Shown: one piece after another, positions 8,232 through 43,805 of the stretch | How positions within the stretch are numbered: position 1 is the stretch's first letter | How the letters are laid out: the number at the start of each line of letters is the position of its first letter | Assembly: GCF_056712565.1 (NCBI RefSeq) | Contig: NZ_CM160072.1 | Strand: one strand, 5' to 3' | DNA: 64,000 nucleotides | Made by a program: the position numbers and the translations under genes | The notes under the pieces: model-generated | Told to the model about the DNA's origin: nothing | Database searches by the model: none | What the model saw: only the letters and a program-made list of their open reading frames with translations

Positions 8232-8564
8232 ATGGCTGGTTGGTTTGAACTCAGTAAGAGCAGTGATAATCAGTTCCGGTTTGTGCTAAAAGCGGGCAAT
8301 GGTGAGACTATCCTCACCAGCGAGCTGTATACCTCAAAAGCCTCTGCGGAAAAGGGCATCGCGTCGGTGCGTAGCAACAGCCCGCAAGAAGAACGCTATG
8401 AGAAAAAAACGGCAAGCAATGGCAAATTCTATTTCAATCTGAAAGCCGCCAATCATCAAATTATCGGCTCCAGCCAGATGTATGCCACCGCGCAATCTCG
8501 TGAAACCGGAATTGCCTCCGTTAAAGTAAATGGCACAAGCCAGACGGTGAAAGACAATACGTAA
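8232..8564 (+). CDS. yegP: DUF1508/YegP-family small protein
   Basis: 110-aa product starting MAGWFELSK with AAGGAG RBS upstream; ORF-track start 8193 is probably too early. Confidence 0.8.
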   Translation: MAGWFELSKSSDNQFRFVLKAGNGETILTSELYTSKASAEKGIASVRSNSPQEERYEKKTASNGKFYFNLKAANHQIIGSSQMYATAQSRETGIASVKVNGTSQTVKDNT

Positions 8565-8571
8565 TTACGAT

Positions 8572-8606
8572 GCCGGGCGTAGGTTGTTGGCGTCCGGCTT
8601 TATATC
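8572..8606 (+). terminator. Rho-independent terminator after yegP
   Basis: GC hairpin gccgggcg...cgtccggc followed by tttatatc. Confidence 0.5.
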
Positions 8607-8688
8607 AAAATAACGCTTATTTATTGATAATTAAGATTAACCTCCGTCATTAAAATAATGAGTAAATAAGTTTCAGTATCAGAATTTA

Positions 8689-9303
8689 TCACGCCCCACA
8701 ATCACCAATCTGATCCACCACCGTCAGATACCAGTCACTGTCATAACTGTAAAGTTGACTTAAATAAAATACCAGTCCATCGTTACTCTCTTCTGGCGCA
8801 GCGACCACACGCACGGCCCCGTATTCCATTCGACGCGCTGCGGCAATCTGCGCATCAGAAATAGTATTTTGCGGTGAACCAAACATCTGCGTGAAGACCA
8901 AACTACGGCTGACTTTATGGTGAACATCGCTATTGCTAATAAAATACCCCTGCTTATTCCAGCCACGTTCGCAGTTAAATTTCGGGATAGCTTTCTTATT
9001 AAATTCGTCATCTCGCGGAACATGTTCCCCTGCCGAGGGCCATGGGAAATACTCGGGAACAGGTTGCCTGAAATTAATTTGCTTAAGATTTTCAACATCC
9101 ATCGAAGCACCACGGTGGAAAAGAACATACAAACCCGTTTTTTTATCAATTAACGAGTTGATTAATTGGGCATCTTCTTGCTGAAAGCCCATAATCACCT
9201 TTCTGGCTGTTTCCTCCAGCGTACACCCGGCATTGGCGGGTAAAGAAAAGAATATCAGCCCCACCAGCATCATTCCTTTTTTTAACATCAGCATTGTTTG
9301 CAT
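8689..9303 (-). CDS. Hypothetical lipoprotein (island gene 4)
   Basis: 204-aa ORF; N-terminal hydrophobic signal ending ANAGC (lipobox-like); AT-rich; last gene of a minus-strand cluster. Confidence 0.65.
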   Translation of the reverse strand: MQTMLMLKKGMMLVGLIFFSLPANAGCTLEETARKVIMGFQQEDAQLINSLIDKKTGLYVLFHRGASMDVENLKQINFRQPVPEYFPWPSAGEHVPRDDEFNKKAIPKFNCERGWNKQGYFISNSDVHHKVSRSLVFTQMFGSPQNTISDAQIAAARRMEYGAVRVVAAPEESNDGLVFYLSQLYSYDSDWYLTVVDQIGDCGA

Positions 9304-9354
9304 CTTCTCATCATGGGGCTCATATTACACATTTAACAATTTTCAGGATAAACC

Positions 9355-11463
9355 TTACACCATACTGTTAACCTGGCCGGGTAATTCGCTAGCTGGAATA
9401 CGAAAGGTATACCAGGCATAACGACAGCGTTTCCACAGGCTGGAGAAATGGAGATGATAAAGGCAATCTGCAATAATTTCGTTATCTGGATATAAAGACT
9501 CGGCAAAATGTGTCCAGCGCGCACTGAGTTTCATGTTAAACAGTTTTTCATCTTCTTTGTTACCATACAGGCGCGACAAAGTAATCATTGCTTCGAGCGT
9601 ACCTTTATTCGCTTCTTCTTGTACCTGTTGGAGGTGCAAATGAGCAAGTGAGAGTTCTTTCACCTCAAAGATATTAAGTAAAAAAAGCCCCCATGCTTTT
9701 TCATGTCCAGCTTCATGAGCCAGAAATAAATTGTCAAGGAGATTTTTTTCATAAATAGCCCGTGTTTCTTTAGAAATTTCTTGTTTATTTAGTGCCTGGT
9801 AGCAGATAGCAATGCTAAAATAAATATTTTGTAGATCTTGTTGATGTTCGCTATAACCATAATTTTTTACCAGTGGATAAGATACCGAGCTATGGAAATT
9901 TAGGTCATCTTGAAGTATTTTAAGTGCCCGTCGAAAATACTCCAAAGCTGTAGATGGTTCATAAGGTAATTTTGTATTGTCTTCCTTATCCAAATATTCA
10001 AGAGCAACTAAATTTAATGCGGCAGGAATATTTCTTTGCTTACCAATTGTCGCAAGCGGAATGAAATAATCAGAAAGGTCAAACCAACTCAAATCTTTTA
10101 TTGCCGACCGCCAATTATGATTGTATTTAATGTCACTAGCTTTTTCCAGCCAAGCATCGCCCTGCCCTTCATCTTTTTCAAAACCCAAAATACCCTCTCG
10201 CTGGAAAAACCCCCTATAAATAACAGGTGTAGCATAAGTTGTATTCTGTGAATTTTGGCAGATAAAATTATATATCCAGAATGAATCTGGATAATAACTT
10301 AATGCAAATTTTATCGCGTACGCAGTGTAATAATTATTGAGCTTCATGTCTTCCATCACCGCTCGCTGTATACAGCACCACAACTTATCGTGATCGTTCT
10401 GCTTGTTATAGCAGGCAAGTAACCACTCTAGGGCATTATGGCGACATTCCTGAAATTGTGCGTACTGAGCAATATTCTCTGCTAAGTCGATTGCATATTG
10501 TTGCTCCTCGGGCGCAATGTCCTCAATGCTGACATCTCGGTAATCATCCCACCAAAGTAAGAGATCCATATAGTCATGTTCTTCGGTAGATAAGTGCTTA
10601 CAGGTTACTGAATCCAGCAATTCGGAAATTTCTTTATGCGACCCTCCCCAGCGTGGCATTCGAAATGGTATATATTCAACAAAAGGATAAAAAGTGTGAG
10701 GAAAAATAGTCAGGCAAACAGAAAGCCAATATTTTTGCCCACCATCATCATCATACTCAGGAAGTATATTGGGGCGAGGCAAAACGGGGCATATTGCATG
10801 CTCAAACGAAAGTCCGGAATACGCCATCAACGCTTCCACTTCTTGCGGGGAGCGGCGGTGATAATTTTTCAGTGCGATCATTAATGGTATTCCTGCGACA
10901 CTATCACCGTTAAGGTGTGCCGCCAGCCAGGCTGGCTGACCAAATACTTTTGAGTTGGTGCTGGTAAGTAATGCAGCCATCCATTGTCGTGGGTCACAAT
11001 CAATTGCTTTAAGTGTAGCGATGACCATTTGTTCATTACATGCACCAGCACAAAGCCACATTGCATGTGTGGTATCATTTGCCCAGCCATAACTGCGATA
11101 TAACCATGCACGGTGATTCCAGTATTGTGCTTCGGCAAGCCAGGCATGTGTAGAATGAGGTCTTGCTTGCTGCCAGGTTTTAATGAGTCTTAAACCTTCT
11201 GTTCCGGCATCAACTAGCGTGTTCATATCATAAAAATAGTTGCACATTTGGGTCCAGGATAAAAAATAGCGCTTTTCAGCCTGACGAGAAGTGAAACTCT
11301 CCTGTAATACCTGGTTATAAATTTCATCTAGTTCCTGATAACGTTTTTCTTGTAACATATAAGGAATATTTGCGATTTGCCATTTTCTCTCAAGAGTATT
11401 AAGTGGCATTTTTTGGTCACACATCTTTTGCATTGCACTGAGTAAACGAGCATCCTGTTCCAT
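9355..11463 (-). CDS. Large hypothetical protein with Sel1/TPR-like C-terminal region and an HExxH motif (island gene 3)
   Basis: ORF 9355..11502; likely start is ATG at 11463 (MEQDARLL) preceded by AAGGA RBS and lying just after the upstream stop; HEAGH encoded at 9703..9717. Confidence 0.65.
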   Translation of the reverse strand: MEQDARLLSAMQKMCDQKMPLNTLERKWQIANIPYMLQEKRYQELDEIYNQVLQESFTSRQAEKRYFLSWTQMCNYFYDMNTLVDAGTEGLRLIKTWQQARPHSTHAWLAEAQYWNHRAWLYRSYGWANDTTHAMWLCAGACNEQMVIATLKAIDCDPRQWMAALLTSTNSKVFGQPAWLAAHLNGDSVAGIPLMIALKNYHRRSPQEVEALMAYSGLSFEHAICPVLPRPNILPEYDDDGGQKYWLSVCLTIFPHTFYPFVEYIPFRMPRWGGSHKEISELLDSVTCKHLSTEEHDYMDLLLWWDDYRDVSIEDIAPEEQQYAIDLAENIAQYAQFQECRHNALEWLLACYNKQNDHDKLWCCIQRAVMEDMKLNNYYTAYAIKFALSYYPDSFWIYNFICQNSQNTTYATPVIYRGFFQREGILGFEKDEGQGDAWLEKASDIKYNHNWRSAIKDLSWFDLSDYFIPLATIGKQRNIPAALNLVALEYLDKEDNTKLPYEPSTALEYFRRALKILQDDLNFHSSVSYPLVKNYGYSEHQQDLQNIYFSIAICYQALNKQEISKETRAIYEKNLLDNLFLAHEAGHEKAWGLFLLNIFEVKELSLAHLHLQQVQEEANKGTLEAMITLSRLYGNKEDEKLFNMKLSARWTHFAESLYPDNEIIADCLYHLHFSSLWKRCRYAWYTFRIPASELPGQVNSMV

Positions 11464-11473
11464 AGATATCCTT

Positions 11474-12190
11474 TTAATTAGGTTCAAAAATTTTAAATTC
11501 ATTCCACGGCAATTTTTTCCAGTTACTGGATGGATCTTTCAACCATGCAGTGACTTCCTTTAAATCACGGTTCGCAGTGGCGACGGGGGTATCGTATATC
11601 ATTAACCATTTTTGTCGGGCGCGAACATAAGCACTGGCATAATCTTCCCATGAAGCGAAACAATCTTGTGCTCTTTGAGCATTCAGTAATAACACTATCC
11701 AGGCCTGGTTTTCATCGCACCAGCCTAAACCGGCGATGCAACGAGTTAAAAAAGCAGTGCGCATACAGTCAAACGCCAGCCCATCCAGAACCTGGCCTTG
11801 TGCTGCCAGTTGTTCGTAAAAATCATGTGGAGAATTACCAAGCCCTGTAGCCCAGCGCTGTAATATAACGCCAATTTGTTGACGGAAATCTTCGTTGCTT
11901 TGGTAAGTTTCTGTTCCTAGCTCTTGTTTAACCTGTAGTGCAAGTTGTTGACGCTTATCATCAGTCAACTTTAAATCTAACGTGAAGCCATTTACTGACA
12001 GTCCATTACGACGAGCAACTATATCACCAATTGCTAATGCCCACTTACGTCTCTTTGTTGCTCGTCTTTTGTCCTTGATTAGATCCTTTTCTTTTTCTTT
12101 AGCAATAAAAGCATCGATTTGTGGTTTGTTTTTTTTGTATCTATAGATAAAAATAAATATTGCGACCAGGAGAACAATGATAAGACTCAT
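11474..12190 (-). CDS. Single-pass membrane-anchored hypothetical protein, possibly DUF1266-like (island gene 2)
   Basis: 238 aa; N-terminal TM helix LIIVLLVAIFIFIY then basic stretch; start ATG overlaps the upstream stop by 1 nt (TAATG). Confidence 0.65.
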   Translation of the reverse strand: MSLIIVLLVAIFIFIYRYKKNKPQIDAFIAKEKEKDLIKDKRRATKRRKWALAIGDIVARRNGLSVNGFTLDLKLTDDKRQQLALQVKQELGTETYQSNEDFRQQIGVILQRWATGLGNSPHDFYEQLAAQGQVLDGLAFDCMRTAFLTRCIAGLGWCDENQAWIVLLLNAQRAQDCFASWEDYASAYVRARQKWLMIYDTPVATANRDLKEVTAWLKDPSSNWKKLPWNEFKIFEPN

Positions 12191-13404
12191 TATTTTTCAA
12201 CCTCTGACAGGGGTAAGTAATGAGATGTCTGTAATGTCAAACTCTCTATCTCAAAGGAAATGTTGCTGATATTTTGACCTGCAAATTGCGGATGCCACTC
12301 AGCGCCAGGGAATAACATTTCCGCAGAAGTAGCAACTATAGGGTCAATAGCATTAAGATAATGTAACTTATCAGGTGCGCTGTGTAACAGTAACCACTGC
12401 AACTCCACTGAAGGATTTGTAAAATGTTCTAATAAATGAAAGTTATTATGTAGTACGCTTAGTAAAAAACTGGTTTCGTATACTTCCGTTACATATTTCC
12501 ACCCCTGATATTCAGGTGTATTTTCATAAACAATACCCATACCTTCACAATCACTATGTCGAACTGCTTGTGGTGATAATAGTTGCAAAAGAGACAAAAC
12601 ATCGTCCGCATATTTTTTAACTGGATGACGATTTTGCTTACCTTTTATTTGATCAATTTCAAGTGAATCACCAACAACATTGAGAGCAATAGTAACATGA
12701 GGAATATTATTATTATCACGCAAACTGAATAACCGTAATTTATGTTGCTCAATTTGATTTGCATAATACTCACCATAACCACCGGTAAGATTTTTTCGAT
12801 CATCAAACTGGCCTACGCAATGTTGCATATGCCATGATTCATAAGCCATTTCACGACGAAGGTTCGAATGACTGGCATCAAACTCAACAATTTTTCCGTC
12901 TGGCACATCAAGTATTGACTTTACAGTATTTTGTTCACTCGGCTGCCACCCTTTCTCGCGTCGTTGAAGCATCTTTTCATGCTCTTCTTCACGCATTCTG
13001 AACGCAACGTAGCAGGTTATGCGCTGTAGTTTTGATTCCAGACGGGTACCACATTTCCTGGAAAGAAATTCCACCAACTCCCGTTCTTTGGTTAATATTT
13101 GTTGATGATCGGTTTCGATATAATAAAGTGTCGCAGTTGATACTGAGGCAGTATTAAACTTCGATACCAGCCATTCCGGGATTACATCATCATTTTTATT
13201 AAACAGTGAATATTCTGCAAGCGAGTTAATTTGTTGCACCATTGGAAAGTCACTAATTAGCCATCGATAAAAATGGTTGAGTAACCATTTTTGGATGGTC
13301 TCATTATCCTGGCGAAACAGACTTCTTTGCAAAATTGCTGTTTTTACTTCCGGGGCATTAATTACATCCCTTGCATTATAATTCTGGTGAATATTTCCAG
13401 TCAT
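12190..13404 (-). CDS. Hypothetical protein (island gene 1)
   Basis: 404-aa ORF, first gene of the minus-strand cluster, AT-rich upstream region; no motif I can name with confidence. Confidence 0.65.
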   Translation of the reverse strand: MTGNIHQNYNARDVINAPEVKTAILQRSLFRQDNETIQKWLLNHFYRWLISDFPMVQQINSLAEYSLFNKNDDVIPEWLVSKFNTASVSTATLYYIETDHQQILTKERELVEFLSRKCGTRLESKLQRITCYVAFRMREEEHEKMLQRREKGWQPSEQNTVKSILDVPDGKIVEFDASHSNLRREMAYESWHMQHCVGQFDDRKNLTGGYGEYYANQIEQHKLRLFSLRDNNNIPHVTIALNVVGDSLEIDQIKGKQNRHPVKKYADDVLSLLQLLSPQAVRHSDCEGMGIVYENTPEYQGWKYVTEVYETSFLLSVLHNNFHLLEHFTNPSVELQWLLLHSAPDKLHYLNAIDPIVATSAEMLFPGAEWHPQFAGQNISNISFEIESLTLQTSHYLPLSEVEK

Positions 13405-13891
13405 AACATCCGCCCGTGTTTATTATATCACTCAAAGCAATAATTGTTGACTATAGATTTTTTATCTAAATCAGCATGGTTGCAGGTACATACTCAAGTA
13501 AGCCACTCAAGAAAATAACGTAAACTCAATAGTGGCAGCGTCACAAACTTTGGAAATTATGTCTTATATTTGCAGTTTATTTTAGTGAATAATTGAGATA
13601 AATGACATTATTTTACATCCTCAATAATTCAGGCTGTAAGAGGACGGCAAATACATTCATAATTATCAGGGGATGAACATTCAGGAAAGTAGTCAGTATC
13701 GTCAACTTTTTCTTTTATCACTACATGAAGATTTCGTGTAGATACTCCCATCTCTGCCACTTCTCCCCTCACATTTACACTGGAGCTAAACCCGCCGATT
13801 GCGCTACAATGCCCGCCCTTAAAGTGGGGGCACTCCCCTAACCGCTTCATCAGGTGAAGCGGCTCTGACCTGTCATCAGAACGAGAGAATT

Positions 13892-15253
13892 ATGTTTAAA
13901 CCGGAACTCCTTTCCCCGGCGGGAACGCTGAAAAATATGCGTTACGCTTTCGCTTATGGCGCAGATGCTGTTTATGCGGGCCAGCCGCGTTACTCCCTGC
14001 GTGTACGCAACAACGAATTCAACCACGAAAATCTTCAGCTCGGCATCAATGAAGCCCACGCGCTGGGGAAAAAGTTTTATGTCGTGGTCAACATTGCACC
14101 GCACAACGCCAAGCTGAAAACCTTTATCCGTGACCTGAAACCGGTGGTGGAAATGGGGCCGGATGCGCTGATTATGTCCGATCCAGGGCTGATTATGCTG
14201 GTGCGTGAACACTTCCCGGAAATGCCAATCCACCTCTCGGTACAGGCTAACGCCGTAAACTGGGCGACGGTGAAATTCTGGCAGCAAATGGGTCTGACCC
14301 GCGTGATCCTCTCTCGCGAACTGTCACTGGAAGAGATTGAAGAGATCCGCAATCAGGTGCCGGATATGGAGATCGAAATCTTCGTTCACGGCGCGCTGTG
14401 CATGGCCTACTCCGGTCGCTGCCTGCTCTCTGGCTATATCAACAAGCGCGACCCGAACCAGGGCACCTGCACCAACGCCTGCCGCTGGGAGTACAATGTC
14501 CAGGAAGGGAAAGAAGATGACGTCGGCAACATCGTACACAAGTACGAGCCGATTCCGGTGCAAAATGTTGAGCCGACGCTGGGTATCGGCGCGCCAACCG
14601 ACAAAGTGTTTATGATCGAAGAAGCCCAGCGTCCGGGCGAGTATATGACCGCGTTTGAAGATGAGCACGGCACTTACATCATGAACTCGAAAGATCTGCG
14701 CGCCATCGCCCATGTTGAACGCCTGACCAAAATGGGCGTGCATTCGCTGAAAATCGAAGGCCGTACCAAATCTTTCTACTATTGCGCACGCACCGCGCAG
14801 GTTTACCGTAAAGCTATCGATGACGCCGCTGCGGGCAAACCGTTCGATACCAGCCTGCTGGAAACGCTGGAAGGTCTGGCGCATCGTGGCTATACCGAAG
14901 GTTTCCTGCGTCGTCATACCCACGACGATTATCAGAACTACGAATACGGTTATTCGGTTTCTGACCGCCAGCAGTTTGTTGGTGAGTTTACCGGTGAGCG
15001 CAAGGGGGAGCTCGCGGCGGTAGCGGTGAAAAATAAATTCTCCGTTGGCGACAGCCTTGAGCTGATGACGCCGCAAGGCAACATTAACTTTACCCTTGAG
15101 CATATGGAAAACGCCAAAGGTGAAGCGATGCCGGTCGCACCAGGCGATGGTTATACTGTGTGGCTCCCGGTGCCGCAGGATCTTGAGCTAAATTACGCGC
15201 TGCTGATGCGTAATTTCTCCGGGGAAACCACGCGTAACCCCCACGGTAAGTGA
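13892..15253 (+). CDS. yegQ: Peptidase U32-family protein YegQ
   Basis: 453 aa starting MFKPELLSPAGTLKNMRYAFAYGADAVYAG; conserved position next to cyaR. Confidence 0.9.
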   Translation: MFKPELLSPAGTLKNMRYAFAYGADAVYAGQPRYSLRVRNNEFNHENLQLGINEAHALGKKFYVVVNIAPHNAKLKTFIRDLKPVVEMGPDALIMSDPGLIMLVREHFPEMPIHLSVQANAVNWATVKFWQQMGLTRVILSRELSLEEIEEIRNQVPDMEIEIFVHGALCMAYSGRCLLSGYINKRDPNQGTCTNACRWEYNVQEGKEDDVGNIVHKYEPIPVQNVEPTLGIGAPTDKVFMIEEAQRPGEYMTAFEDEHGTYIMNSKDLRAIAHVERLTKMGVHSLKIEGRTKSFYYCARTAQVYRKAIDDAAAGKPFDTSLLETLEGLAHRGYTEGFLRRHTHDDYQNYEYGYSVSDRQQFVGEFTGERKGELAAVAVKNKFSVGDSLELMTPQGNINFTLEHMENAKGEAMPVAPGDGYTVWLPVPQDLELNYALLMRNFSGETTRNPHGK

Positions 15254-23445: not shown

Positions 23446-24275
23446 ATTCAAATCTCCTGCAATGTGGGAGATTTGAGTATGGTTGTCTCTCAAGAGCGAA
23501 AATAAGTCAACTATCACTAGTTGTTGCGCATGTACGTATTCTGTCAATTAATTATTGACAATCATCAATTCTGGAATGATCAAAATCATCATATCGAATT
23601 ATAGTCTGGTTGACTGTATCTATTGTTGGTGTCATTTCTGTTATAATATCCTGATAACCTAAAGAGTTAAATACATTTACTAAGGCCTCACACCGAAGGG
23701 CCGTAGCAATTACAAAATTATAAATTGCCAGCCGTTTATTTTCTTGTTTAACTGCAAGAATGAATTCGATAGCAGTATTTTCATCACTTTGGATTGCATT
23801 ATATAGAGATACTATATTTACCATATCATCAGAGAATGTATGTATTGAATCACAAAGGGGAACGTAATGGGCATGATAGTGTGTTTCCCAGCCAATTAAT
23901 TCAAAAAGTCTTCTGGTTCCTGGATATTCAGGTGTATTTGGCCACAATCTATTAAATAGATCAGTTAGTTCTTTTCCCATGCGAATCCTTTCATTTGCTG
24001 CTGGATTAGTCATTCCTTTGGATTTTAAACACTCCAGCCACCGTTTTCCATTACTATGAACTAATTTCTTACTAGCCTTGAGTAATGCTTGTGCATTTTC
24101 GCCATCATCTATTGCTATATAAAATTGATTGGCAGCCTGTTCTATTATAACCCTAGCTAATACTTCCGATGCTGAAAAGGCTCCTATATTCAAAGAAGAG
24201 ATAGCCTGATTACTAAGTTCATTCAGTACATTAAAGTACTGTAAGACCATCAATTTTTGTTCCACACCCTTTAGG

Positions 24276-24280
24276 TTGTC
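24276..24280. repeat. IS2 target-site duplication, TTGTC (copy 1)
   Basis: 5 bp immediately flanking the IS2 terminus, identical to 25612..25616. Confidence 0.85.
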
Positions 24281-24291
24281 TGGATTTGCCC

Positions 24292-25197
24292 CTATATTTC
24301 CAGACACCTGTTATCACTTAACCCATTACTGGCTTGCTGCCGTAGATATTCCCGTGGCGAGCGATAACCCAGTGCACTATGCGGATGCCATTCGTTATAA
24401 TGCTCGAACGCCTCTGCAAGGTTCTTTGCTGCCGTTAACCCGTCTGGTTTGGGCATGACACTGATGTAGTCACGCTTTATCGTTTTCACGAAGCTCTCTG
24501 CTATGCCGTTACTCTCCGGACTCCGCACCGCCGTGCTCTTCGGTTCAAGCCCCAACATCCGGGCAAACTGCCGTGTTTCATTAGCCCGGTAGCATGAACC
24601 ATTATCCGTCAGCCACTCTACTGGAGACGCCGGAAGCTCGTTGCCGAAGCGGCGTTCCACCGCTCCCAGCATGACGTCCTGTACTGTTTCACTGTTGAAG
24701 CCGCCCGTAGTGACCGCCCAGTGCAGTGCCTCACGGTCACAGCAGTCCAGCGCGAACGTGACTCGCAGTTTTTCTCCGTTATCACAGCGGAACTCGAACC
24801 CGTCAGAGCACCATCGCTGATTACTTTCTTTCACAGCCACTCTGCCTGTATGTGCCCGTTTCGATGGCGGTACAGCAGGTTTTCGCTCAAGCAACAGCGC
24901 ATTCTGGCGCATGATCCGGTAAACACGTTTGGCATTGATCGCAGGCATACCATCAAGTTCTGCCTGTCTGCGAAGCAGCGCCCATACCCGACGATAACCA
25001 TACGTGGGCAGCTCTCCGATAACATGGTGTATACGGAGAAGCACATCCGTATCATCAGTGTGACGACTGCGGCGGCCATCCATCCAGTCATCGGTTCGTC
25101 TGAGAATGACGTGCAACTGCGCACGCGACACCCGGAGACAACGGCTGACTAAGCTTACTCCCCATCCCCGGGCAATAAGGGCGCGTGCGCTATCCAC
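24292..25197 (-). CDS. insD: IS2 transposase InsD (orfB, DDE domain)
   Basis: 301-aa ORF inside IS2. Confidence 0.9.
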
Positions 25198-41588: not shown

Positions 41589-43805
41589 ATGGAACTTAGA
41601 TTAAAAAATGTTACCAGTTATAAGAAAGACGCCTTCACAATACTGAATCTTGAAAAAAGAGTAAACATACTATACGGCCAAAATGGTTGTGGCAAATCTA
41701 CCATTTCAAATTATTTCTACGACTCTACACACACAGATTATAACGAGTGTGAATGTACCCTTCTTGACAATTACAAACCTCTTGTTTACAACACTAAATT
41801 TATTGAAGATAACTTCTATAATGCACAGGAACAAAAAGGTGTTTTTACATTAAGTAAAGAAAATGCAGATATTGAAAAACAATTAATTGAAAAAGAAGCA
41901 ATTAAACAGCAACTCACAGAGCAATATAGACAAAAAAAAGGAGTGTTATTGAAATTAGAAGCAGAAATGGAAAAAAAAGAAAATGAATACATCGAATCGA
42001 TCTGGAAAAAAACAGAACCAATCAGAAACTCTGTACTAAAAACCTTAATGAAAGGTAAAGTTGGCTATAAAAGACCTTTTTTTGAGATGATAAAATCATC
42101 CTCACCAATCACCTTTATTAATTTAAATGATATAGCAAAAGAATACTCTATACTATTAGAAAATAGAAACAATGAAACCGCATTAATAACTCCTTTACAT
42201 CCATATACCCCATCAATTGATGATGTAAATACATTAGCAACACCTATAATAGATACAAGCAATAGCTATTTATCAGAAACCATTAATAAACTTCATAATC
42301 TTGACTGGGTAAAAAAAGGTAAAGAACATTATTTAGACGGTTCTACATGTCCGTTTTGTCAGGAAAAAACTATTAGTCACGAATTTTTAAATGCCCTTAA
42401 ATCAATATTTGACGAAAGTTATTCAAAGAAAGTAAAACAGCTCTCAGATATAAAGTCAGTTTATGAGAAAAATACCATATATCATTTTAACGAAATACAA
42501 AACAATATATCATCATGTGCACTAATCAATGAGAAAGATAAAGAGAACATTATTTCCAATATTAAAATATTGCAAAACATTGCAGAAAAAAATTTAATAA
42601 ACATTATTGATAAGATCAACAATCCATCAACATGCGTTACATTAGAAATTGATAAAGAACTAGAAAATCATGTTCAGGAAAGCATAGGCGCTGTTAACAA
42701 GAAAATAAGAGACATAAATGATAAGGTTAAAAAACTCAAAGAGTATGAGAATAAAATCGGAAAACAAGTTTGGGGGGCTCTCCATGCTTTTTGCAGCGAT
42801 GATTTAGAGAATTTATCCAAACACAAAGAAAAATTCTTTGATATCAAAAAGAAAGTTCATGATGAATTAAATAATATTGAGCAACAAGGAAAAGAAAATA
42901 ATCTCACAATAAAAGCATTGCGAGATAAAATATCTAACATTGATTCTACGATAGACTCAATAAACACCCATTTAAAAAATCTAGGGATCTCTGGTTTTTG
43001 TATTGAAAAACATGCAGAAAGAAAAGATATGTACATTATATCTCGACCAGGGCATACAAAAAACCAAAATGTTTATAGATCTCTTAGCGAAGGTGAAAAA
43101 ACACTAATAACGTTTCTTTATTTTTTAGAGTGCTGTAAAGGTAAAACCGATAAAAATGATACCGATAGCAGGGATATTTTTATTGTTATTGACGATCCAA
43201 TATCTAGTCTATCGCAAAACTATGTCTACGACATCGCATCAATTATTCATCACCACATTATAAAAAATGAATTAACAAAGAAGGTATTAATCCTTACTCA
43301 CAATCTTTATTTCTTTCATGAACTTATTAAGCTATCTCCTAAAAGCAGAGAAGACAAACTATTTAAGAAAAACTATTATCTAGGTAGAGTAACGAAAAAT
43401 GATTTTAGTATAATTACTGAAATACAAAAAAACAGCATACAGAATGAATATCAATCTTTGTGGCAAATATTAAAAGATGCAAAAGATGGCAAAGCAAACA
43501 AAATCATAATACCGAATATTATGAGAAACATACTAGAATATTATTTTGCATTTGTTCATAGAACAGATGCTCTACAAGATGAATTAACAAAGTTGGCACG
43601 CGACGATAGCAACAGTGATTTCAAAGCATTCTACAGATACATTAACAGAGGTTCTCACTCTGATGCGGTAAATATTACTGATATGGGCGACATAGACCCA
43701 GATAAATACCTAAAACAATTGAGAACAATATTTTCAGCTACTGGTGACGAAATGCATTATTTAAAAATGATGGACGAACTAGAAGAGGAAAACGTTACCG
43801 CTTAG
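41589..43805 (+). CDS. SMC/ABC-type P-loop ATPase with CxxC and C-terminal R-x3-E...H tail; RloC/PrrC-like anticodon-nuclease candidate (prophage cargo, tin/old position)
   Basis: Walker A GQNGCGKST near N-terminus; CPFC about aa 253; Walker B IFIVIDDP and LILTHN H-loop about aa 525-560; C-terminal RNILE...H; strongly AT-rich. Confidence 0.7.
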   Translation: MELRLKNVTSYKKDAFTILNLEKRVNILYGQNGCGKSTISNYFYDSTHTDYNECECTLLDNYKPLVYNTKFIEDNFYNAQEQKGVFTLSKENADIEKQLIEKEAIKQQLTEQYRQKKGVLLKLEAEMEKKENEYIESIWKKTEPIRNSVLKTLMKGKVGYKRPFFEMIKSSSPITFINLNDIAKEYSILLENRNNETALITPLHPYTPSIDDVNTLATPIIDTSNSYLSETINKLHNLDWVKKGKEHYLDGSTCPFCQEKTISHEFLNALKSIFDESYSKKVKQLSDIKSVYEKNTIYHFNEIQNNISSCALINEKDKENIISNIKILQNIAEKNLINIIDKINNPSTCVTLEIDKELENHVQESIGAVNKKIRDINDKVKKLKEYENKIGKQVWGALHAFCSDDLENLSKHKEKFFDIKKKVHDELNNIEQQGKENNLTIKALRDKISNIDSTIDSINTHLKNLGISGFCIEKHAERKDMYIISRPGHTKNQNVYRSLSEGEKTLITFLYFLECCKGKTDKNDTDSRDIFIVIDDPISSLSQNYVYDIASIIHHHIIKNELTKKVLILTHNLYFFHELIKLSPKSREDKLFKKNYYLGRVTKNDFSIITEIQKNSIQNEYQSLWQILKDAKDGKANKIIIPNIMRNILEYYFAFVHRTDALQDELTKLARDDSNSDFKAFYRYINRGSHSDAVNITDMGDIDPDKYLKQLRTIFSATGDEMHYLKMMDELEEENVTA

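Follow-up and report, generated by a model that had tools for sequence, protein, structure and literature searches.

Three of the four genes located between yegP and yegQ in the Escherichia coli DNA analyzed here form a co-conserved module, gA-gB-gC. With a probability of about 0.55, we consider its products to be one complex at the inner membrane, tethered to its cytoplasmic face, in which gA would act as catalytic or effector subunit and gC as scaffold, the fourth gene, gD, being separate. The analyzed DNA (the window) is a stretch of 64,000 nt from contig NZ_CM160072.1 of assembly GCF_056712565.1, and all coordinates are positions within it. We infer a single three-protein complex because the genes co-occur, their start and stop codons overlap, gA-gB fusions exist and a large third protein of the TPR class accompanies them. 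An earlier note on this DNA had regarded all four genes as one translationally coupled operon. This holds for gA-gB-gC, which are coupled and co-conserved, but not for gD, which stands alone in E. whittamii and does not accompany the core outside Escherichia.

The variable segment reaches from the yegP terminator to the yegQ promoter region (8599..13800). On the plus strand it is preceded by mdtBCD-baeSR-yegP, ending at 8564, and followed by yegQ (trhP), which starts at 13892. Alignment with two empty-site strains (loci L012 and L014) placed the junctions at 8598/8599 and 13800/13801 and revealed that about 21 bp (GCTTTACCAGTTACCCCCACA) of the empty allele, in which the spacing between yegP and yegQ is 146 bp, are replaced by the segment. 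A terminator-like stem of yegP (8586..8598, plus strand) abuts the left junction, the T-tract after the stem being provided by the first bases of the segment. The AT-rich DNA that the earlier note had seen between the two genes was confirmed, with a length of 5.2 kb, a GC content of 0.397 compared to 0.54 in the flanks, and junctions slightly inside 8607-13891. Due to this AT-richness, the segment is likely a target of H-NS. The four open reading frames (ORFs) postulated for the minus strand (404, 238, approximately 702 and 204 amino acids) are all present, and the proposed absence of mobility functions was corroborated, since neither an integrase or transposase among these ORFs nor repeats flanking the segment could be found. 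As regards the features of a classical genomic island or mobile element, the segment therefore possesses neither an integrase or transposase nor flanking direct repeats, and its site is intergenic (yegP/yegQ) and not a tRNA gene. A scan of the segment against Rfam gave zero matches.

All four genes lie on the minus strand. gA (12190..13404) encodes a PcfJ-like, cytoplasmic protein of 404 amino acids, the putative catalytic subunit. Its stop codon overlaps by one base with the start codon of gB (11474..12190; TAATG), which codes for a DUF1266 protein of 238 amino acids with an N-terminal membrane anchor. gC (9355..11463) starts 10 nt after the gB stop codon and is preceded by AAGGA; the overlap, the spacing and the separate ribosome binding site of gC had all been described correctly before. 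From its RefSeq start, gC yields a cytoplasmic protein of 702 amino acids with DUF4034 in the N-terminal and Sel1-like repeats in the C-terminal half, the longest ORF (715 amino acids) extending to 11502. The gC stop codon is separated by 51-60 nt, depending on the gD start codon, from gD (8689..9294), which encodes an Escherichia-specific exported protein of 201 amino acids, or 204 if the ATG at 9303 is used. Upstream of gA lies an AT-rich 5′ leader (13405..13768, minus strand), in which a consensus scan detected a promoter-like candidate at 13450-13422 (TCAACA-17-TATAAT, TG before the second hexamer, 10 of 12 matches). Together with this leader, gA-gB-gC make up the core indel unit (9300..13768, minus strand), the exact stretch missing in gD-only alleles, E. 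whittamii (L015) and E. coli 19KM1831 (L098).

To determine the distribution of the module, one genome of each of 100,044 species was scanned for gA by means of two peptide patterns, and 80 loci were retrieved. Relatives of gA were present in 132 species. The 91 gA-containing loci classified with profiles from E. coli and a few other proteins gave the following picture: a DUF1266 gene follows directly downstream of gA, in the same direction, in 90 loci, with gA-DUF1266 fusions in 12. Two types of third member occur. In Type I (37 loci in enterics, Burkholderia, Variovorax, Lysobacter, Chitinilyticum and Rhizobium), it is a DUF4034 protein encoded downstream; in Type II (52 loci in Pseudomonas, Ralstonia, Trinickia, Delftia, Acidovorax and others), a protein of approximately 780 amino acids is encoded upstream. 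No homology between the DUF4034 family and the Type II partner was detected by hhalign (probability <1%). Both types carry TPR-class repeats; in the Type II partner, for which no Pfam domain was found, the family profile shows a canonical TPR close to the C-terminal end. Type I and Type II are found together in Serratia sp. DD3 and in Burkholderia paludis. Start and stop codons overlap or are closely spaced, and the gene organization is conserved over beta- and gammaproteobacteria and Rhizobium. The co-occurrence analysis of all four genes, which the earlier note had proposed, thus linked gA and gB to a large third protein in the 91 loci but showed gD to be independent.

Clustering of neighbouring genes, performed in search of a conserved fourth gene or regulator, gave lineage-specific synteny alone, the within-genus neighbours being stable housekeeping genes. 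An apparent link to two-component systems held up in two cases only, with BaeSR in enterics and with an unrelated pair of the OmpR type in Lysobacter. In Salmonella enterica, an ORF of 239 amino acids (L010:10728-11447) begins 4 nt after the DUF4034 gene; it has no Pfam match, shows no similarity to gD and may be a lineage-specific fourth gene of the module. A Type II module (780-aa protein, gA and gB; 4632-8858 of L091) occurs in Pseudomonas fluorescens FW300-N2E3, a strain for which public fitness data from random barcode transposon-site sequencing (RB-TnSeq) exist.

The gA protein matches the Pfam family PcfJ (PF14284) only weakly (E 1.2e-5), over residues 141-268, which correspond to its central alpha/beta domain. 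Of 30 gA homologues, 13 were recognized by the PcfJ profile at E<=1e-3 and 29 at E<=0.1. gA represents a divergent PcfJ-like subfamily with 224 detectable homologues, which occur in Klebsiella, Salmonella, Serratia, Burkholderia, Variovorax, Pseudomonas, Lysobacter and Rhizobium, some of them being DUF1266 fusions of 600-690 amino acids. Invariant are Y9, R12, N16, R27, S28, R31 and D33 in the N-terminal part and E185, E189, H195, C196, GGYG208-211, R224, R229, Q252, K254-G-K-Q-N258, Y265 and D285 further on; such a density of invariant polar residues is as expected of an enzyme. The AlphaFold2 model (predicted local distance difference test score, pLDDT, 83) comprises an N-terminal helical region, the central alpha/beta domain and a C-terminal helical region. 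In residues 161-304 of the model, the order of strands and helices and the conserved QxKGKQ loop between strand and helix are compatible with a GNAT-like core. We take this resemblance as a lead and not as a classification: the loop reads Q-I-K-G-K-Q instead of the canonical GNAT motif Q/RxxGxG/A, no GNAT Pfam match was obtained with 30 family members, and no PDB entry was matched by sequence. A Foldseek search of AFDB50 with gA returned only family members and unannotated PcfJ-like proteins. A hydrophobic segment above threshold was not found in gA. With the PcfJ-like proteins (PF14284) of pCF10 and of IncI2-type conjugative plasmids, gA has in common the profile match over its central alpha/beta domain. 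It differs from them by the weakness of this match, by its additional conserved N- and C-terminal helical regions, by its chromosomal location outside mobilizable plasmids and phages, and by its pairing with DUF1266. In the literature searched, PcfJ appeared only as a label of plasmid genes or as a target domain of diversity-generating retroelements (DGR), with no function given.

The gB protein matches DUF1266 (PF06889) with an E value of 1.1e-18 over residues 94-229 and can be aligned with YbeR and YbeU of E. coli K-12. In all unfused gB homologues, basic residues come directly after a hydrophobic helix at the N-terminus, and the DUF1266 domain is thus predicted to be cytoplasmic. In the fused gA-gB forms this helix is absent and an Ala/Pro-rich linker is found instead. 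Only gB has a transmembrane helix among gA, gB and gC, and the single-pass membrane protein recognized in the earlier note is indeed gB. Its predicted model (pLDDT 91) is all-helical and without structural neighbours. The similarity to the NCBIfam family PRK11380 amounts to 17 bits, compared to a cut-off of 386 bits. DUF1266 was encountered once in the searched literature, as an H-NS-repressed gene of strain 042 whose locus tag makes a position in the ybeR/ybeU region probable.

The gC protein matches DUF4034 (PF13226) with an E value of 1.7e-101 over residues 43-319, the whole profile length. The profile of the gC family additionally matched Sel1-repeat structures (6ok3, 2e-25; 4bwr, 7e-22; human SEL1L, approximately 1e-13), in three to five stretches at profile positions of about 390-550, in the C-terminal half. 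The invariant residues are mostly W, G, P and R, and no transmembrane segment exceeded the threshold. DUF4034 was mentioned in no paper of the literature searched. The family libraries contributed little beyond these Pfam assignments. A match of gC to PDC-S32 (E 1.3e-3 over 80 residues) was the only PADLOC match among gA-gD; PADLOC-DB v2 gave none for gA, gB, gD or the Type II proteins, PHROGs none for gA-gD, and NCBIfam nothing meaningful for gA-gD, in particular no toxin or antitoxin family. By sequence, no PDB entry matched gA, gB, gD or the family profiles of gA and gB. The earlier statement that none of the proteins matches a family that can be named with confidence has to be revised with respect to PcfJ (1e-5), DUF1266 (1e-18) and DUF4034 (1e-101), but it is right insofar as these families are functionally uncharacterized. 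No component belongs to a characterized family or system. We rate the module as lying outside the known kinds, which reflects missing knowledge and not a demonstrated new mechanism.

How might the three proteins act together? In the complex that we favour, gB would supply the membrane anchor through its N-terminal helix and bind gA. With its invariant His-Cys pair, the QxKGKQN motif and the weakly GNAT-like core, gA would be the catalytic or effector subunit, while the repeat scaffold of gC might select a partner or substrate or regulate gA. In Type II lineages, the upstream TPR-containing protein of approximately 780 amino acids would take over the role of gC. The envelope-associated system suggested previously is weakly supported by the membrane anchor of gB, but gB is oriented towards the cytoplasm, in which gA and gC are also located, and the exported gD is outside the module. 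As to the physiological role, an accessory function in stress or conflict, frequently lost, appears to us more likely than housekeeping. Some points weigh against a gA-gB-gC complex of this kind. The E. coli gC sequence, taken by itself, gave no Sel1 match. Since gA was searched for with the two peptide patterns, the co-occurrence counts depend on its detection by them, and divergent arrangements may have been missed. Moreover, the analogy to the hscC locus described below is one of context, and that locus is itself uncharacterized with regard to DUF1266.

Beside hscC, K-12 possesses two comparable triads, ybeQ(Sel1)-ybeR(DUF1266)-djlB and ybeT(Sel1)-ybeU(DUF1266)-djlC-hscC, and gB resembles YbeU as well as YbeR (E 1e-4). 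What the loci have in common is a DUF1266 protein coupled through overlapping genes to a larger partner, a Sel1-like repeat protein, and one anchored member. What separates them is the partner, there a J-domain co-chaperone of the Hsp70 protein HscC, here the PcfJ-like gA without similarity to DjlB and DjlC, and the position of the anchor, at the C-terminus of the J-protein there but at the N-terminus of the DUF1266 protein here. Due to this parallel, a DUF1266 protein and a Sel1/TPR protein look like an adaptor pair for different effectors. It is a tentative extension, clearly less probable than the complex itself, that such pairs are previously unrecognized, reusable membrane-proximal adaptors with interchangeable effectors (a J-domain/Hsp70 arm beside hscC, a PcfJ-like enzyme here), and that gA-gB-gC is the first representative of a new three-component sensing/effector class serving immunity or stress surveillance in Proteobacteria, including extraintestinal pathogenic E. 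coli (ExPEC) and Nissle 1917.

The comparison across E. coli genomes that the earlier note had recommended could be completed, and gave presence/absence data as well as exact junctions. Over positions 8300-14200, the identity to E. coli ATCC 11775 is 100%. Of the 5,426 complete genomes of this species, 297 (approximately 5.5%) contain the segment at a coverage of at least 80%; most have the empty allele. DNA of gD was detected in 304 genomes, including CFT073, UTI89, Nissle 1917, clone D i2 and avian pathogenic strains. The same site harbors a ParDE toxin-antitoxin cassette in 1,847 genomes (34%), a gene for a HEAT-repeat protein of 466 amino acids in 97 genomes, and gD together with the HEAT gene, without the core, in about seven. 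E. whittamii (L015) has gD alone at the site. The fullest allele is that of E. fergusonii, yegQ-gA-gB-gC-gD-HEAT-yegP. Judged by collinearity, the alleles are composed of discrete units, namely the core (9300-13768), gD (8685-9299) and the HEAT gene, which in E. fergusonii replaces positions 8604-8684 of the window. The HEAT-repeat gene (L098:4786-6186, L016:8637-10037) has a weak PADLOC match to HEAT-ARM_XIII (E 1e-6), and in Salmonella (L010) another HEAT-repeat gene is located a few kb downstream of the module. The ParDE cassette occupies the identical yegP-yegQ site, and both ends of the insert, 62 bp on the left and 30 bp on the right, are common to the cassette and the segment. The left part (8599..8660) was identified by a 95%-identical blastn alignment of the ParDE allele L013 running in from the flank. 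The right part (13771..13800), which is also kept by gD-only alleles, is the 3′ end of parE in the cassette (..HLHWS*). By contrast, the genes of the two inserts are unrelated, and tblastn with ParD and ParE produced no significant match inside the segment. All cargo alleles appear to lie in one common frame, at which neither repeats nor a recombinase were found.

The core proteins of E. coli and E. fergusonii are 95-96% identical at the amino acid level, with a synonymous divergence (dS) of 0.06-0.16 compared to 0.06-0.43 in the flanking genes. The ratio of nonsynonymous to synonymous divergence (dN/dS) of the core is 0.15-0.29, from which it can be concluded that the core genes are under purifying selection and functional. 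In Klebsiella, Salmonella, Citrobacter and Buttiauxella, the three-gene core adjoins baeR in the opposite orientation to Escherichia and lacks yegP and gD. In the loci of these genera (L002, L010, L018-L022), the module follows baeR on the same strand at a distance of 150-780 bp, while in Escherichia it is inverted and yegP is located between the module and baeR. It is possible that in the four genera the module is expressed by read-through or in a BaeR-dependent manner. Between E. coli and the other enteric genera, the amino acid identity of the core amounts to 57-65%, that of BaeS to 80-90% and that of BaeR to 93-97%. Most simply, these data are read as an acquisition that took place long ago at this locus in the Enterobacteriaceae, with rapid evolution and several nested losses thereafter; we consider an insertion that occurred recently, in the B2 lineage, less probable. 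Insertion is no more likely than nested loss starting from an ancestor with a fuller gene set, because E. fergusonii carries these genes at this site, equally oriented and with a flank-like dS, and because other enterics carry the core by baeR. The segment had been described before as inserted. It is strain-variable accessory DNA, but its insertion is doubtful in view of the E. fergusonii allele and the enteric core near baeR.

The strongest competitor of the membrane-tethered complex outlined above is a defence system against phages or plasmids, in which the repeat protein senses the invader and the membrane-held gA modifies a host or invader target, possibly resulting in abortive infection. 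Several properties are in line with this. The module is patchy (approximately 5.5% of the E. coli genomes, 132 of 100,044 species), its core diverges between enterics much more than BaeS and BaeR, its GC content in E. coli is low and its site is taken by ParDE in 34% of the strains. The repeat partner has been swapped between two unrelated types, both of which are present in Serratia sp. DD3 and Burkholderia paludis. In addition, AFDB contains many truncated gA fragments from Salmonella, suggesting frequent decay, and domains of the PcfJ type are known from conjugative plasmids and from the target proteins of DGR. On the other hand, gA, gB, gC and the Type II proteins gave no significant match in PADLOC, nor was any PHROG matched. 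The module was not found among 50,697 phage records and, among 72,556 plasmids, was present only on eight large non-mobilizable replicons. Its surroundings are housekeeping genes with stable within-genus synteny and not defence islands or mobile elements, and a nuclease, NTPase, TIR, SIR2 or pore-forming effector is not recognizable. Taken together, a defence function is rather improbable.

A much smaller likelihood attaches to the assumption that all four genes constitute one envelope-associated operon with gD as its periplasmic or lipoprotein part. The genes are co-directional, gC and gD are only about 55 nt apart, gD DNA was detected in 304 E. coli genomes and the full island in 297, the two thus being inherited together almost without exception, gB is membrane-anchored and gD is exported. 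However, gD is found alone in E. whittamii and with the HEAT gene but without the core in the approximately seven E. coli genomes, whereas every core locus outside Escherichia, e.g. in Klebsiella, Salmonella, Citrobacter and Burkholderia, is devoid of gD, and the gene following the Salmonella core is unrelated to it. gD has also diverged more rapidly: its amino acid identity between E. coli and E. fergusonii is 87%, compared to 95-96% for the core proteins, and its dN/dS is 0.34. The earlier classification of gD as a lipoprotein had to be abandoned. In homologues, R, L, H or P stands in place of Cys27, which follows the signal peptide, and the −3 residue is N; the lipobox cysteine is thus not conserved, while an AxA signal-peptidase I site is. 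Two other cysteines, C111 and C202, are conserved and compatible with a periplasmic disulfide. Close homologues of gD are confined to E. coli, E. fergusonii and E. whittamii. An exhaustive search revealed a distant family of proteins of approximately 200 amino acids (147 clusters) in unrelated contexts, and their gene neighbourhoods were uninformative as a clue. No match to gD was obtained in Pfam, PADLOC, NCBIfam or PDB, and no link to the core was found beyond adjacency in Escherichia. We regard gD as an independent, periplasmic and Escherichia-specific neighbour with its own evolutionary history.

It is similarly improbable that gA acts as a toxin and that gB, alone or together with gC, serves as the antitoxin or immunity protein of an addiction-type module resembling ParDE. 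Such a function might be suspected from the chromosomal position shared with the ParDE cassette, the tight coupling of gA and gB and the weakly GNAT-like fold of gA, which recalls acetyltransferase toxins such as TacT and AtaT. However, gA and gB are a single polypeptide in 12 of 91 loci, which is unusual for such pairs, and with 404, 238 and 702 amino acids the proteins greatly exceed the usual size of type II pairs; moreover, a third protein of 700-800 amino acids is obligatory. Neither PADLOC nor NCBIfam contained a matching toxin or antitoxin, and occurrence on plasmids is limited to the eight non-mobilizable replicons. The least probable explanation, a decaying remnant without current function, would agree with the absence of the segment from approximately 94% of the E. 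coli genomes, its AT-richness and the truncated Salmonella gA fragments in AFDB, but it is opposed by four intact ORFs that are nearly identical in about 300 genomes, a dN/dS of 0.15-0.34 and a three-gene layout conserved over beta- and gammaproteobacteria and Rhizobium.

In gA-gB-gC, three Pfam families without known function (PcfJ-like, DUF1266, DUF4034) are joined in one testable unit. The natural gA-gB fusions point to a physical complex, and the invariant residues of gA provide defined targets for mutagenesis. The parallel to hscC, djlB and djlC suggests that solving one system would inform the other. K-12 naturally lacks the module, and an empty allele of the site with clean borders exists, so that gain- and loss-of-function studies are easily set up. 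Since the module is present in much-studied extraintestinal pathogenic and probiotic E. coli (CFT073, UTI89, Nissle 1917 and avian pathogenic strains) but not in K-12, it is one of a small number of lineage-specific gene sets by which lineage-specific behaviour could be explained. Published data touching the locus are few: searches for hscC in combination with anti-phage returned nothing and those for yegP and yegQ nothing relevant. In CFT073, yegQ is c2611 (PMC6727828), and by tag arithmetic the four genes of the segment should be c2607-c2610. c2608, a 'hypothetical (membrane) protein', is listed as a candidate fitness gene in a transposon screen of CFT073 in mouse bacteraemia, being 9.56-fold under-represented (PMC3855560). 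By the same arithmetic, c2608 lies inside the segment and would be one of gA, gB, gC or gD. STM2133, associated with mild hypermotility (PMC4219756), might belong to the Salmonella module.

A P2-like prophage is located directly downstream of yegQ at approximately 15500-50000, the segment lying outside of it, across yegQ. According to the annotation of ATCC 11775, it extends from ogrK, gpD and tail genes to a site-specific integrase beside yegR. At this position, K-12 retains only a remnant of a P2-like prophage. Within the prophage, an ATPase of 738 amino acids (41589-43805, plus strand) matches PADLOC PDC-S06 from end to end (E 1e-254) and shows weaker similarity to PrrC and LmuB. Its counterpart in ATCC 11775, an AAA ATPase gene, is split by ISEc12, an insertion sequence (IS) of the IS21 family, while the gene is intact here; the window therefore differs from ATCC 11775 outside the segment. 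Finally, a copy of IS2 (23552-25197, minus strand) resides in the prophage between the tail-sheath and tail-fibre regions. It contains an ORF of 301 amino acids that matches IS2 TnpB (E 3e-215) and accounts for approximately 1.3 kb of additional DNA compared to ATCC 11775.

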